This document shows, piece after piece, positions 6,825 to 55,801 of a stretch of DNA of 64,000 nucleotides. The stretch is from Vicinamibacterales bacterium. GTDB lineage: Bacteria > Acidobacteriota > Vicinamibacteria > Vicinamibacterales > UBA2999. Numbering within the stretch: position 1 is the first letter of the stretch; each line of letters opens with the position of its first letter. Where the stretch lies: positions 2,407 through 66,406 of the forward strand of contig DASYQV010000170.1 in assembly GCA_036005125.1 (NCBI GenBank), given 5' to 3'. Both the position numbers and the translations under genes were made by a program. The notes beneath the pieces were generated by a model, which was not told the origin of the DNA, searched no databases, and saw only the letters and a program-made list of their open reading frames with translations.

Positions 6825-7529
6825 ATGGTGCGATACTTCCCCATTGTGCTGACGCTGTGTCTTCTGCCGATGGCGGCCGCCGGGGTCCCCAACGCGCGTG
6901 TTTTGCGCGCTGGGGTGGAAGGCGCGCAGTCGAGGCCCGCTCCCGAAGCGCTCGCGCGCTCGCTGCAGCAGCGATACGAAGGAATCAAGGATTTCTCGGC
7001 TGATTTCGTCCACACGTACCGAGGCGGCGTCCTGCGACAGCAGGCCAAGGAGCAGGGCACGGTCACGGTGAAGAAGCCCGGCAAGATGCGCTGGAACTAC
7101 ACGACCCCCGAAAAGAAGATGTTCGTCTCCGACGGGGTCAAGATCTATTCCTACGTCCCGCAGGACAAGCAGGTGATGGTCGCGAAGGTCCCGTCCGCCG
7201 ACGAAGCGACCACGCCGGCGATGTTCCTCGCGGGAAAGGGTGATATCGCCAGGGACTTCAAGGCGAGCTACGCGGACGACAGGGCCTCGGGCGGTCTATA
7301 TGCGTTGAAGCTGGTGCCCCGCCGGCCGGAGCCGGAATACGAATCCCTCATTGTCATCGTGGATCCCCAGTCGCTCCAGATTCGCGCGCTCACGACATTC
7401 GACACGCAGGGAGGCGAGTCGACGTTCACGTTCAACAACATGAAGGAAAACCAGGGAGTGTCCGATAAGGAGTTCGCGTTCCGCATTCCGCGCGGCGTCG
7501 ACGTGATTACCGATGGCGCATCGAGGTGA
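6825..7529 (+). CDS. lolA: Outer-membrane lipoprotein carrier protein LolA
   Basis: Signal peptide, then LQQRYEGIKDFSADF...GTVTVKKPGKMRWNYTTPEKKMFVSDGVKIYSYVPQDKQV...LKLVPR...FTFNNMKEN, the LolA domain pattern. Confidence 0.85.
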   Translation: MVRYFPIVLTLCLLPMAAAGVPNARVLRAGVEGAQSRPAPEALARSLQQRYEGIKDFSADFVHTYRGGVLRQQAKEQGTVTVKKPGKMRWNYTTPEKKMFVSDGVKIYSYVPQDKQVMVAKVPSADEATTPAMFLAGKGDIARDFKASYADDRASGGLYALKLVPRRPEPEYESLIVIVDPQSLQIRALTTFDTQGGESTFTFNNMKENQGVSDKEFAFRIPRGVDVITDGASR

Positions 7530-9570
7530 TAGGACCGCTATGCGGTCTCTCATTGGGATTTTGTACGCTTTGCGCCGCACCCGCATAGCGGTCCTCGGCG
7601 CGCGAAGCGCGCCAAAAAGATACTGTCCAACCAGACAAGCGCTCTGCCGGGCCGGGGCCCCCAACGCGCGTTTCCCAAGTCGCGGTCGCTTGCGACCGCG
7701 ACCCAGCCAGCGCTGGTTGTGCGGTCCGCCATCGGCGGACCGCCGGGGTGGAGATGGCAAGGGCAGAGCGCTTGTCTGGTTCGGTCTGATCGTGCTCGTG
7801 GCGGCCACTCTGTCCGCCTGCGCGTCAGCAACGTCGATGCGCAACGGCCGCTTTGCCGAGCAGGGGCGGGACTACGATCGCGCGGTTATCGAGTACACCA
7901 AGGCCCTGCGGGAGCATCCCACAGACAGCAACGCCCGGCAGGCGCTCGAGCGGATGAAGTTGCGGGCGGCGCAGGAGCACTTCACCCGCGCGCGCCGCCT
8001 GGCCACCGCCGGCAATCTGGACGAGGCGCTGATCGAATACCAGCTCGCCGCGGAATTGAATCCAGACAACCCGGACATCGAGGACGCGGTTCGAACGATC
8101 CGTTCACAGCTTCGCAACAAGATTGCTATCGCGCGTGAGGGCAAGACGCAGCTCGAGTCGCTCATCGAGCGCTCGAAGCTGCTCGCGCCGCCCGGACTCG
8201 ACCTGCCTCCGGATGTCAAGCTGCCGGAGTCGCTGACGTTTCGCGACGCGGGCTCCCGGGACGTCTACACGGCAATGGCGCGGTTCGCGAACATCAACGT
8301 GGTGTTCGATCCGCAATTCCGCGATCAGCCGGTCACCGTGGACCTGCGCAACACGACGCTCGCCGATGCGCTGACGTCGGTCTCGACGGCCACGCGCAAC
8401 TTCTATCGCGTCACCGCCGCGCGCACGATCACGATCATCCCGGACACCCCGGCCAAGCGGCGTGAGTACGAGGAAGAGGTCGTCCGCACGTTCTATCTCA
8501 GCAACGCCGACCTGAAGGAAACCATCGACCTCCTGCGCATCGTCATCGATGCCCGCCGCATCGCGCCGATCGCGGCGACCAACGCGCTGACGATCAAGGA
8601 CACGCCCGAACGCGTGGACGCCGCGGCGCGCGTCATCGCGGCCATCGACAAGGCCCGGCCCGAGGTCGTGATCGAGGTCGAGCTGCTCGAGGTCGATCGC
8701 ACGCGGCTGCTCGAATACGGCCTGCAGCTCGCCTCACCGGGCTCCGCGGGCATCAATGGGGGGGCGGACGCGAACCGAAAAGACCTCACCCAGCACGACC
8801 TGACGAATCTGTCGCCGCGCGATATCTTCCTCACGAACCTGCCCGCTCTCTATTACCGGCTGCTGAAGCGCGACAGCAACACGCGCACGCTGGCGAACCC
8901 GCAGCTCCGCACATCCGAGGGAATGCCTGCCCGGGCGAGATTCGGCGAACGCGTTCCCGTACCCGTCACGACGTTCTCGCCGATTGCTGCCGGCGGCGTC
9001 CAGCAGCAGCCGATCACCTCGTTCAACTACGAGAACATCGGCGTGAACCTGGATATCACGCCGCGTACGCATCACGACGACCAGGTGTCGCTGTCGCTGA
9101 GGGTCGAGGTCAGCAGCATTTCCGGCGCGGGTTTCGGCGGGCTCCCGACGTTCGGCAATCGCGAGATCAACACCGTGATCCGGCTGCGCGACGGGGAAAC
9201 CAACATGCTCGCCGGCCTCATCAGAGACGATGAGCGGCGCGTGCTCGAGGGCATCCCGGGCCTGAGCGACCTTCCGCTGATCGGGCGGCTGTTCGCGTTC
9301 AACCACAAGGAGACGCAGGAAACCGATATCGTCCTCACGCTGACGCCGAGGATTATCCGCGTGCTGGAGCTGACCGAGGCCGACCTGCGGCCGTTCCGCG
9401 TGGGCCGCGAAAGCGGGGCGACGATCATCGATCTGCCCGCGCCGCCTCCTCCCCTGCCGCCGGGACCGACTCCGCCGCCCCCGAAGCCGCCCGACGATAC
9501 CGCGCCGGTGGCGCCGCTTCAGCCGGCGGTCCCCGTGAAACCCCCGCCGATTAAGCCCCCGGCTCGGTAG
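7513..9570 (+). CDS. Secretin (GspD/PilQ superfamily) with N-terminal lipobox and TPR region; start codon unresolved
   Basis: LIVLVAATLSAC lipobox at ~7790-7825, TPR-like YDRAVIEYTKAL..., secretin N-domains, and a C-terminal secretin motif GETNMLAGLIRDDERRVLEGIPGLSDLPLIGRLF...TDIVLTLTPRIIR. The 7513 coordinate is the maximal ORF, which reads through repeat copy 1. An in-frame TTG at 7717 (inside module D) is an alternative start. Confidence 0.8.
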   Translation: MAHRGDRTAMRSLIGILYALRRTRIAVLGARSAPKRYCPTRQALCRAGAPNARFPSRGRLRPRPSQRWLCGPPSADRRGGDGKGRALVWFGLIVLVAATLSACASATSMRNGRFAEQGRDYDRAVIEYTKALREHPTDSNARQALERMKLRAAQEHFTRARRLATAGNLDEALIEYQLAAELNPDNPDIEDAVRTIRSQLRNKIAIAREGKTQLESLIERSKLLAPPGLDLPPDVKLPESLTFRDAGSRDVYTAMARFANINVVFDPQFRDQPVTVDLRNTTLADALTSVSTATRNFYRVTAARTITIIPDTPAKRREYEEEVVRTFYLSNADLKETIDLLRIVIDARRIAPIAATNALTIKDTPERVDAAARVIAAIDKARPEVVIEVELLEVDRTRLLEYGLQLASPGSAGINGGADANRKDLTQHDLTNLSPRDIFLTNLPALYYRLLKRDSNTRTLANPQLRTSEGMPARARFGERVPVPVTTFSPIAAGGVQQQPITSFNYENIGVNLDITPRTHHDDQVSLSLRVEVSSISGAGFGGLPTFGNREINTVIRLRDGETNMLAGLIRDDERRVLEGIPGLSDLPLIGRLFAFNHKETQETDIVLTLTPRIIRVLELTEADLRPFRVGRESGATIIDLPAPPPPLPPGPTPPPPKPPDDTAPVAPLQPAVPVKPPPIKPPAR
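7531..7784. repeat. Modular MITE-like composite element, copy 1 (modules A-B-C with module D nested at 7654-7752)
   Basis: A: AGGACCGCTATGCGG...CCGCATAGCGGTCCT. B: GGCGCGCGAAGCGCGCC. C: CCAGACAAGCGCTCTGCC...GGCAGAGCGCTTGTCTGG. D (99 bp) lies in the C loop. Starts 2 nt after the lolA stop. Confidence 0.85.
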
Positions 9571-42784: not shown

Positions 42785-42790
42785 CGGTCC

Positions 42791-42927
42791 CGATTCGTGA
42801 TTCGTGATCCGTGATTCGTGATTTGTGGTTCGTGAGTTTGCGATTCGCGATTTGTGGTTCGCGGCGAATCGCAAATCATTCCCACCAATCAGAATCACAA
42901 ACCAGTCACGAATCACAAATCACGAAT
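42791..42927. repeat. Tandem-heptamer palindrome, GATTCGT type, locus H8
   Basis: Left arm is ~10 units (GATTCGT GATTCGT GATCCGT GATTCGT GATTTGT GGTTCGT ...) to 42862. The right arm (GCGAATC GCAAATC ... ACGAATC ACAAATC ACGAATG) follows with no spacer. It contains the RDD-gene TGA and ends 6 nt from the pgpA ATG. Confidence 0.95.
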
Positions 42928-43942
42928 GCTTTTCGATGACGCGCGTACGGGTCAGGCGGTCGTGCACGGCGCGGCGGTCGGATCCGACGAGCGCGGGAAG
43001 GAACCCGAGGCCGAGCGACACGACCGACAGGGCGCCGGCAAGCGTGCGCTGAATCGCAATGCTTCCATCGAGCGAGTCGCGACCGTCGGCAATGACCCGG
43101 ATCCCGACAGCCATCTTGCCGATCGTCTGACCGCCCACGGCCGTAAACGCACTGAAGTACGAGAGCTTGAGCAGCAACAGGAACGTCAGCAGCGGCACCG
43201 GCGGAACGACTGCCCACTCGCTCATCGTCAGACCCGCGATGCGCAACGTGAAGTACACGATCGCCAGGTCGATGGCCAGGAGGAGCGCGTGATCAATCGC
43301 AAGCGCCGCGAGACGGCGACCGGCGATCCGGTCGACGCGCGTGCTGACACGCGGCACGGTCACGGGCTCGTGACGCGCAATCGTCGCGTCAGGAGGTGCA
43401 GCCGCCTCCTCGTGGAAGTCGAGCTCCATCTCGGGACGCGCAAGCTTCGATGCGGCACGTGGGCCGGGGTCCCCAACGCGCGTTTTTCCAGTCGCGGTCG
43501 CTCGCGACCGCGACCAGCCAGTGCTGGTTTCGCGGTCCGCCTGCGGCGGACCGCCGGGGTGGACGCGCGGTGAGTCGGGCGTCCGACGCACGGCCAGCGG
43601 TGGACGAGGCGCGCTCGGCAGCGCAATCAGCGGCGCGTCATCCGGACCGTAGGGACCGAATAACGGCAGTGCGACATCCGGTTTGCTCGGGGGCGGTGCG
43701 GCGGACGACGCGACCGGTGGTGGCGTCAGACGATCGCCGGCCGGCGACCGCGTTGCGGCGCGCCATCGATCCAGTTGGTCCAGCCAGACATCTGTCGAAG
43801 GAGCCTCGCCCTGATCCGGGTGAATTGTCACATCCGGGACTGCCGGCGCATCCTCACGCGCCATGAGCGAGAAATCGTATCCGCAGTTTTTGCACCGGTC
43901 GCCCGTCTCGAAGCCAAGATAACCGCACTTCGAGCACTTCAT
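42920..43942 (-). CDS. RDD-family membrane protein with N-terminal zinc-ribbon; repeat module D inserted in-frame in the linker
   Basis: MKCSKCGYLGFETGDRCKNCGY zinc ribbon, a Pro-rich linker, and a C-terminal RDD domain (AGRRLAALAIDHALL...VHDRLTRTRV). ATGA overlap with the upstream gene. Confidence 0.8.
   Translation of the reverse strand: MKCSKCGYLGFETGDRCKNCGYDFSLMAREDAPAVPDVTIHPDQGEAPSTDVWLDQLDRWRAATRSPAGDRLTPPPVASSAAPPPSKPDVALPLFGPYGPDDAPLIALPSAPRPPLAVRRTPDSPRVHPGGPPQADRETSTGWSRSRATATGKTRVGDPGPRAASKLARPEMELDFHEEAAAPPDATIARHEPVTVPRVSTRVDRIAGRRLAALAIDHALLLAIDLAIVYFTLRIAGLTMSEWAVVPPVPLLTFLLLLKLSYFSAFTAVGGQTIGKMAVGIRVIADGRDSLDGSIAIQRTLAGALSVVSLGLGFLPALVGSDRRAVHDRLTRTRVIEKHS
43466..43563. repeat. 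Repeat module D (98 bp), solitary copy inside the RDD-protein coding sequence
   Basis: GGGGTCCCCAACGCGCG...GTCGCGGTCGC-TC-GCGACCGCGAC...GCGGTCCGCC-TGC-GGCGGACCGC...CCGGGGTGGA. About 90% identical to 7654-7752. Confidence 0.9.
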
Positions 43943-55571: not shown

Positions 55572-55801
55572 GTACGTAGGCCGCATCTTTAGATGCGGCC
55601 CAGCGAATGTGCCCGGGTCTAGCCAGCCAAGGGGCTCTGCCCTTGATATCCCAGCAGAGCCGGGGTCCCCACCGCGCACGCTTGCGCGGTGGGGTGGAGA
55701 GCCCTCGCCTGGTTAGACCCAGTGTCTTTTTGGCGCGCTCCGCGCGCCTCGCCCGTCATGCGGTCGCACAACGAGTACAAAATTCGCGTGTGTGGCCCAC
55801 G
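55572..55801. repeat. Modular MITE-like composite element, copy 5 (inverted orientation; hairpin-family head, C with short D-like insert, B, degenerate A)
   Basis: GTACGTAGGCCGCATCTTTAGATGCGGCC head. CCAGCCAAGGGGCTCTGCC...CAGAGCC[GGGGTCCCCACCGCGCACGCTTGCGCGGTGGGGTGGAGAG]CCCTCGCCTGG. GGCGCGCTCCGCGCGCC. CCCGTCATGCGGTC. The reverse complement aligns with copy 3. Confidence 0.85.

Follow-up and report, generated by a model that had tools for sequence, protein, structure and literature searches.

A dispersed hairpin repeat in frame within an RDD-family gene of a Vicinamibacterales bacterium, and the variable codon junction that it occupies

Introduction

How does a hairpin-rich repeat of about 100 nucleotides (nt) come to lie in the middle of a bacterial protein-coding gene with the reading frame still open, and is the gene translated through it? 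This question is raised by a repeat, here named D, in the gene for a zinc-ribbon and RDD-family membrane protein (the RDD gene) on a stretch of 64,000 nt, the window of this analysis, from a Vicinamibacterales bacterium of the phylum Acidobacteriota (assembly GCA_036005125.1, contig DASYQV010000170.1, positions 2,407 to 66,406 of the forward strand). An original prediction, made from the sequence of the window, had recognized D as a 98-99-bp module inserted in frame, with a behaviour like that of the Rickettsia palindromic elements (RPEs). Our results make it likely that D is a small non-autonomous hairpin repeat family of Vicinamibacterales and other Acidobacteriota, which entered the RDD gene in frame and was then turned over at that site.

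Results

The RDD gene and its long-form D insert

The host gene and its insert are listed below, together with the three G/C-rich hairpins (X, Y and Z) predicted in folds of this copy of D.

42920..43942, minus strand: host gene for a zinc-ribbon and RDD-family membrane protein of 340 amino acids (aa), from the open reading frame (ORF), its translation and Pfam
43463..43564, minus strand: long-form D, an in-frame insert of 102 nt in the RDD gene, defined against the empty allele L002 and other alleles
43532..43554: hairpin X, GCGGTCCGCC-TGC-GGCGGACCGC, 10-bp stem (sequence and fold)
43514..43527: hairpin Y, CCAGC-CAGT-GCTGG, 5-bp stem (sequence and fold)
43491..43514: hairpin Z, GTCGCGGTCGC-TC-GCGACCGCGAC, 11-bp stem (sequence and fold)

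The ORF was uninterrupted and its translation was exactly the one quoted in the original prediction, with a CxxC...CxxC ribbon at the N-terminus and the Pfam RDD domain at residues 207-331. More than 3000 homologs of the same architecture were found, most of those listed being about 300-320 aa long, and their names pointed to Vicinamibacterales, Acidobacteriota. In an alignment of 22 RDD proteins, all nine distant orthologs, as well as three closer ones (P0008, P0010 and P0013), lacked the segment and read ...RRTPESPR|LRA..., as expected of a lineage-specific insertion of about 33 residues with precise boundaries, which is how the module had been interpreted. The insert was delimited against empty orthologous sites with an uncertainty of 1-2 nt, and its exact bounds, first given as 43466-43563, had to be moved to 43463-43564. 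It encodes VHPGGPPQADRETSTGWSRSRATATGKTRVGDPG, corresponding to 34 extra residues (127-160) between the zinc ribbon and the RDD domain, the location originally proposed, and the junction peptides of the predicted protein are SPR-VHPGG and GDPG-PRA (also TPDSPRVHPGGPPQADR and VGDPGPR). The two long copies of the window (7652-7752 and 43464-43563) share about 90% identity across about 100 nt, and the core GTCGCGGTCGCNNGCGACCGCGAC is present twice, versus 0.01 occurrences expected by chance.

An AlphaFold model of the protein, built from the 22-sequence alignment, was of low confidence (mean predicted local distance difference test score, pLDDT, of 51.7); in it, residues 123-193 had a pLDDT below 50 and no secondary structure, consistent with a disordered Pro/Ala-rich linker in the region of the insert and with the linker-like placement predicted from the sequence. 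No in-frame ATG, GTG or TTG was found between the insert and the RDD membrane domain, no search for a ribosome-binding site having been made. Rfam, at gathering thresholds, detected no RNA family on D, the sole match in the window being a tRNA. A phmmer search of 1.84 billion representatives for the 34-residue peptide of the insert returned no matches and missed the RDD relatives too, an uninformative outcome given the short and compositionally biased query. An intron- or intein-like nature of the insert was ruled out, as about 100 nt is too small, and there was neither an Rfam match nor a catalytic ORF.

Allelic variation at the insertion site

The DNA of the site was read in eight related RDD genes and in the window, and the following alleles were observed.

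L002: empty site, GAGTCGCCACGC|CTGCGTGC, insert of 0 nt
L006: scar CTCCACCCCGGC, 12 nt
L005: a single short palindromic unit, 42 nt
L007/L008: the scar with one 42-nt unit, 54 nt
L003/L004: the scar with three 42-nt units in tandem, 138 nt
Window, L001 and L009: long form, 102 nt

The six insert lengths (0, 12, 42, 54, 102 and 138 nt) are all multiples of three, in keeping with the original view that the gene is not split. L003/L004 and L007/L008 are agreeing independent assemblies, indicating that these alleles are not assembly artefacts. The long copies of the window and L009 stay in frame because 1-nt indels flanking hairpin Z compensate each other, the indels differing between the two copies; the hairpin is accordingly translated as SRSRATAT (window) or VAVARDRD (L009), pointing to selection on the frame rather than on the peptide. 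At the level of the DNA, the site argues strongly that the RDD gene would be translated through the insert.

In a tree of the RDD proteins with the insert masked, the occupied alleles formed one clade (support 80/94) and the outgroups were empty. The empty allele P0008/L002 fell within this clade (support 99/96), surrounded by alleles of the long, short and scar types, consistent with seamless loss. The empty, short and long alleles L002, L005 and L009, respectively, shared 97-99% identity in the 240 nt preceding the site. The long copies in RDD genes were 89-94% identical to each other, a divergence similar to that of their flanks, suggesting that the long form was probably the ancestral occupant of the site. 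The scar CTCCACCCCGGC matches exactly the product of a deletion between the element's own CCCCGGC direct repeats.

Anatomy and dispersal of the D family

The basic D unit is a palindrome of 40-42 nt, (C)TCCACCCC-AACGCGC-loop-GCGCGTTGGGG-ACCCCGG, and the short form, 38-42 nt long, contains an 11-bp stem. In the long form, of about 100 nt, the left arm and loop are swapped for the three G/C hairpins X, Y and Z, both ends being retained; the ends common to the two forms measure 8 and about 20 nt. A scan of the window with the shared end GCGCGKTGGGGRCCCCGG detected four D copies, two short and two long.

6880-6919 (scan coordinates): short copy in lolA
7652..7752, minus strand: long-form D of 101 nt, nested within the hairpin C loop of copy 1 of the A-B-C mosaic repeat (sequence match)
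43464-43563 (scan coordinates): long copy in the RDD gene
55660..55698, minus strand: intergenic short-form D with the hairpin CCCCACCGCGC-loop-GCGCGGTGGGG, nested within the module C loop of mosaic copy 5

The original prediction had noticed the shortened form in copy 5 of the mosaic, placing it at about 55651-55690 instead of 55660-55698; it had not reported the short copy in lolA. All four copies share the same absolute orientation (CCGGGG...GGTGGA on the plus strand), with host genes on both strands, which could reflect a replication-strand bias as in single-strand transposons, the number of copies (n = 4) being too small for significance.

In soil-metagenome contigs, the depth across 43464-43563 was 15-25 times that of the flanking gene, and contigs from other loci ended at 43463/4 and 43563, indicating sharp repeat ends. 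Scanning soil metagenomes for hairpin Z yielded 43 stretches, about 32 of them with the whole long form, measuring 100-104 nt from TCCACCCC to CCCCGG, and many of these long copies are nested in the module C loop of the A-B-C mosaic. The long form disperses as one unit. A scan of genome contigs with 18-mers gave many unrelated matches (e.g. a conserved Micromonospora gene without the left arm), and only matches with the left arm were used. Among the matches listed, the short palindrome with its left arm was present in many metagenome-assembled genomes (MAGs) of Acidobacteriota (gp6/Vicinamibacterales, Terriglobales and groundwater bins), and most short copies were intergenic.

D copies in lolA and the secretin gene of the window

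The other in-gene copies of the window are located at two adjacent genes.

6825..7529, plus strand: lolA, outer-membrane lipoprotein carrier, 234 aa (homologs with Pfam LolA PF03548)
6879..6920: short-form D, 42-nt in-frame insert at the junction of signal peptide and mature protein of lolA (pattern match)
7513..9570, plus strand: secretin (GspD/PilQ-like, with a TPR N-domain), maximal ORF from the ancestral ATG
7528..7779, plus strand: complete A-B-C(D) mosaic of 252 nt, located at the stop codon of lolA and within the secretin signal peptide, whose frame it keeps

The lolA insert adds 14 residues, GVPNARVLRAGVEG, and its orientation relative to the gene is the reverse of that of the RDD copy. 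It was absent from 14 of 15 aligned LolA orthologs, being shared only with a 93%-identical relative (P0122), and the empty site in L167 reads ATCGCGGCC|GGCGCGCAG.

The lolA stop codon overlaps the secretin start, and the mosaic sits on that stop codon. N-termini of the secretin orthologs read MAHRGSRFALIVLVAATLSAC, that is, MAHRGSRF-ALIVLVAATLSAC, whereas that of the window reads MAHRGDR, followed by 82 residues and FGLIVLVAATLSAC; the quotation of the maximal-ORF peptide in the original prediction was correct. When the L167 DNA was compared with the window by eye, the mosaic was found to replace 6 nt of the ortholog, for a net gain of 246 nt that keeps the frame with the ATG at 7513. As the orthologs start with MAHRGSRF, the upstream ATG at which the maximal ORF begins is ancestral, placing the repeat within the old coding frame. 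A gene caller had placed the secretin start at a TTG at 7690, within hairpin Z of D (P0242). No canonical in-frame start (ATG, GTG or TTG) was found from the end of D to the hydrophobic core of the signal peptide, so that D is probably translated in the secretin too.

D copies in genes of other genomes

Besides the RDD gene, D was detected in frame inside at least seven further genes, which include, outside the window:

L165: squalene/phytoene synthase (Pfam SQS_PSY), long form in the same reading frame as in the RDD gene
L166: AcrB-type RND pump (Pfam ACR_tran), long form in frame
L159: GAF domain (Pfam GAF_2) of a HisKA_3 kinase, long form in another frame
L143: beta-eliminating lyase domain (Pfam Beta_elim_lyase), partial copy with X-Y-Z only
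L125: DUF1587...DUF1595 protein (Pfam PSD3..PSD5), long form in the opposite orientation
L077: GT4 glycosyltransferase, short form in the linker between its two domains

In-gene copies were accepted where Pfam domains span or bracket D, and ORFs over the copies of L126, L131, L136 and L164, without Pfam support, were left uncounted. Most long ORFs across short-form copies were Arg-rich artefacts with no Pfam matches, the GT4 case being the only one accepted. About one quarter of the sampled long copies were intragenic, in both orientations and at least four reading frames, and the repeats added 14-80 residues at linkers, domain junctions and signal peptides.

The 24 distinct long copies were open in 5.17 of the six frames on average, versus 3.82 +/- 0.24 in composition-matched shuffles, in line with an avoidance of stop codons across frames. 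This excess is real and is not to be over-read, since the copies are related and their stems are nearly pure G/C, with A/T only in the loops. That D is open in both orientations had been singled out as noteworthy; the openness was confirmed, and is due in part to 75% G+C and the G/C-only stems.

Discussion

What we infer of the translation of the insert, of the order of events at the RDD site and of the mobilization of D would read as follows. In the ancestor of a shallow clade, one D copy would have entered the RDD gene at the junction of the ...SPR and LRA... codons; its 102 nt being stop-free, the gene would have stayed open, and the protein most likely gained 34 linker residues without a function of their own. 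A later internal deletion between the CCCCGGC direct repeats would have left the 12-nt scar, and the other later changes would comprise seamless loss, replacement by a short unit or re-entry, and tandem growth to three units, with selection retaining only the variants of a length divisible by three. The mobilization of D would depend on a trans-acting enzyme recognizing the two ends common to the short and long forms. Our best guess, although we would not put it at quite an even chance, is a trans-acting transposase of the HUH/Y1 type that recognizes single-strand hairpins, of the kind of IS200/IS605 and of the tyrosine transposases associated with repetitive extragenic palindromes (RAYT and REP, respectively), which fits because there is no duplication, the empty allele is seamless, the tandem units are head-to-tail and the orientation is uniform. 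Slippage and gene conversion clearly contribute to the turnover as well, as the scar and the tandem units point to them.

Several observations weigh against this history. Target-site duplications were not consistent, the ambiguous overlap being 2, 1 and 0 nt at the three junctions for which an empty site allowed resolution; no conserved target motif was found at those junctions, and no target consensus in the flanks of about 17 solo copies, save for a pyrimidine before TCCA. D has no GTAG/CGTC tag like that of the classical REPs (PMC3733652), and no CnGA foot like that of the class 3 Y1 enzymes, whose genes do occur in Acidobacteria (PMC6006769). In the contigs of four soil metagenomes, which drop rare variants, no joints skipping D were found, and the locus was absent from the metatranscriptome runs searched. 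A switch from the long to the short form would be impossible by simple deletion, implying loss and re-entry or conversion from another copy. The insert separates two invariant arginines (R126 and R162) beside a conserved PLAVRRTPxxPR motif, indicating a site that tolerates insertion and yet is no featureless linker. The excess of open frames, in turn, rests on related copies and is explained in part by the G/C-only stems.

The alternative that survives best, though we consider it unlikely, involves no transposition at all: a single ancient insertion would have been followed only by slippage, hairpin-stimulated deletion and ectopic gene conversion, D being a passive structured repeat. The scar is exactly what slippage between CCCCGGC repeats would leave, the tandem 42-nt units resemble slippage products, a single entry is enough for occupied alleles that form one clade, and the resolved junctions show no consistent target-site duplication. 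However, about 32 long copies and, among the matches listed, dozens of short ones lie at unrelated loci with sharp identical ends, which calls for a copying mechanism; the long form is dispersed as a fixed composite, copies occur in unrelated genes whose orthologs are without them, and the shared ends, of 8 and about 20 nt, offer little length for RecA-dependent conversion.

It seems improbable that the insert is a selected functional module, kept for its benefit as a peptide linker, a signal-peptide extension or an mRNA structure tuning translation, stability or export. The persistence of the long form across the depth of the RDD clade, the location of three of the four window copies inside ORFs (two of these at signal peptides) and the depletion of stop codons in all six frames would suit such a role, but the peptide is not conserved, as the two translations of hairpin Z illustrate (SRSRATAT and VAVARDRD), very close relatives lack the insert or have markedly different forms of it, and unrelated hosts with insertions at linkers, domain junctions and signal-peptide junctions form the pattern expected of tolerance. 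Least probable of all is a split or dead RDD gene, in which the repeat would be non-coding DNA separating a zinc-ribbon mini-ORF from an RDD ORF with a start of its own, and the open frame would be due to chance at high G+C; spurious ORFs of some length are frequent in this DNA of more than 70% G+C, and D is open in most frames anyway, but six allele lengths in multiples of three, the different compensating indels of the window and L009, the conservation of the C-terminal domain and of the motif just upstream of the insert, the lack of an in-frame ATG, GTG or TTG between insert and membrane domain (ribosome-binding sites not having been looked for) and the occurrence of D within single Pfam domains of other proteins all speak against it.

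D is a REP/MITE-like family (MITE, miniature inverted-repeat transposable element) with RPE-like behaviour, and in-gene palindromic repeats were known before, both from Rickettsia and from several free-living bacteria. The elements RPE-1 to RPE-10 (Ogata et al. 2000/2002, summarized in PMC10969869 and PMC3733652) resemble D as dispersed palindromic repeats of about 100-150 nt, also intergenic, whose presence varies among close relatives, and as repeats with many in-frame copies in unrelated housekeeping genes that add about 30-50 residues at tolerant positions. D is likewise a dispersed multi-copy palindrome (four window copies, about 32 long copies in metagenomes, 15-25-fold depth and three hairpins), and it lies in frame in unrelated genes, as judged against orthologs for RDD, LolA and the secretin, and by Pfam context for SQS_PSY, ACR_tran, GAF, Beta_elim_lyase, the PSD protein and GT4. 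In contrast to RPEs, which inhabit a reduced intracellular alphaproteobacterium, D is hosted by a free-living soil acidobacterium with a large genome of 70% G+C; its peptide is not conserved, owing to frame shifts within the element, and it has short and long composite forms and nests in other mosaic repeats. Expression of decorated proteins was shown for RPE-1, whereas that of the D-bearing proteins is predicted. With the ends TCCACCCC... and ...GGGGACCCCGG, D has no CGTC at either foot and no recognizable relatedness to RPEs, as judged by inspection and not by direct comparison with RPE copies. The RPE likeness that had been predicted is thus upheld by in-frame copies in unrelated genes, but such behaviour is not unique to Rickettsia (PMC3733652).

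That source describes intragenic REPs tagged with GTAG/CGTC in the free-living Opitutus terrae, Thauera, Xanthomonas and Sphingopyxis (Di Nocera et al. 2013, PMC3733652). Like D, they are short GC-rich palindromes, single, paired or clustered, that contribute about 14-80 residues inside ORFs, often N-terminally, and their families are mostly extragenic, just after genes. D differs in the feet of its palindrome, TCCA (5') and ACCCCGG (3'), or CCGGGGT and TGGA on the other strand, with no GTAG/CGTC, and nothing comparable to the six allelic states at a single codon junction was seen in that paper. As an imperfect palindrome of 20-40 nt, single and in mosaics and mostly outside genes, the short form matches the description of a REP. 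D also resembles bacterial interspersed mosaic elements (BIMEs) and the REP doublets known as REPINs, mobilized by the Y1 enzyme RAYT, in its mosaics of hairpin modules, in units nested in loops, in a possible seamless loss and in the lack of DDE-type terminal inverted repeats plus duplication; it differs from them in having no inverted REP doublet and no GTAG tag, and in its high intragenic share (about one quarter of the sampled long copies). Among the 114 loci examined, no gene was found between two inverted D copies.

Bacterial MITEs that form in-frame fusions (ERIC, BOX, QMITE1 and Anabaena MITEb/e; PMC10969869) are likewise small non-autonomous repeats able to sit open inside ORFs, but they carry features typical of DDE transposition, namely terminal inverted repeats and target-site duplications. 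In D, no consistent duplication is seen at the three resolved junctions, and in place of inverted repeats with a fixed-length duplication there were an overlap of 0-2 nt and, at the secretin, 6 nt replaced. New here are the D family, the phylum that hosts it, the existence of short and long composite forms and the series of six allelic states at a single codon junction; in the literature, no paper describing such repeats in Vicinamibacterales was found.

The protein genes of abundant uncultured soil Acidobacteriota are, on this evidence, remodelled by small hairpin repeats, which extends to a free-living high-G+C phylum a behaviour best known in Rickettsia. The RDD site offers a natural allelic series in near-identical backgrounds, in which excision, re-insertion and tolerance are directly testable. 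In practical terms, D repeats break metagenome assemblies, mislead start-codon calls, as in the secretin start called within the repeat, and inflate the apparent variation in protein length. A bolder reading, which we hold to be rather doubtful, would make D a third kind of hairpin repeat, free of the GTAG/CGTC tag and of DDE-type duplication and moved by a single-strand enzyme of Acidobacteriota, with a sequence shaped for readability in six frames (units of 42 and about 102 nt) and with the RDD site as a true hot-spot of excision and re-entry. D would then be able to colonize coding DNA in gene-dense genomes, would come back time and again to the junctions it had occupied, and would keep supplying a dominant soil clade with variation in linkers and signal peptides.

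Additional observations

The X-Y-Z block was also found alone, without the D ends, in the beta-eliminating lyase domain at L143:3693-3759 and at L149:1205-1271, the latter in a stop-free frame with no gene support; such blocks suggest that X-Y-Z may be a separable module that once entered a short D. At a contig end, L144:2100-2215, a short and a long D follow each other in direct tandem. Two short D units in the same orientation, 113 nt apart, were contained in a larger conserved repeat (..attgcttggcgcgggccccagcgcggctgcCCACCCC..), representing another composite family, in L015, L052, L067 (MAG YP3.bin22), L027 and L100.

Near-perfect short-form palindromes (CCACCCCAACGCGCAAAGTCCGCGCGTTGGGGGCCCCGG) were detected in an Acidimicrobiia MAG (Actinomycetota), on the megabase contigs CAWARO010000003.1 (L032) and CAWARO010000002.1 (L048), and could represent horizontal spread or convergence. 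The L048 copy lies inside a plausible lipoprotein ORF, which is unconfirmed and has no Pfam match. In the window, heptamer-array palindromes of the GATTCGT/ACGAATC type are located at 42786-42927, directly after the stop codon of the RDD gene.

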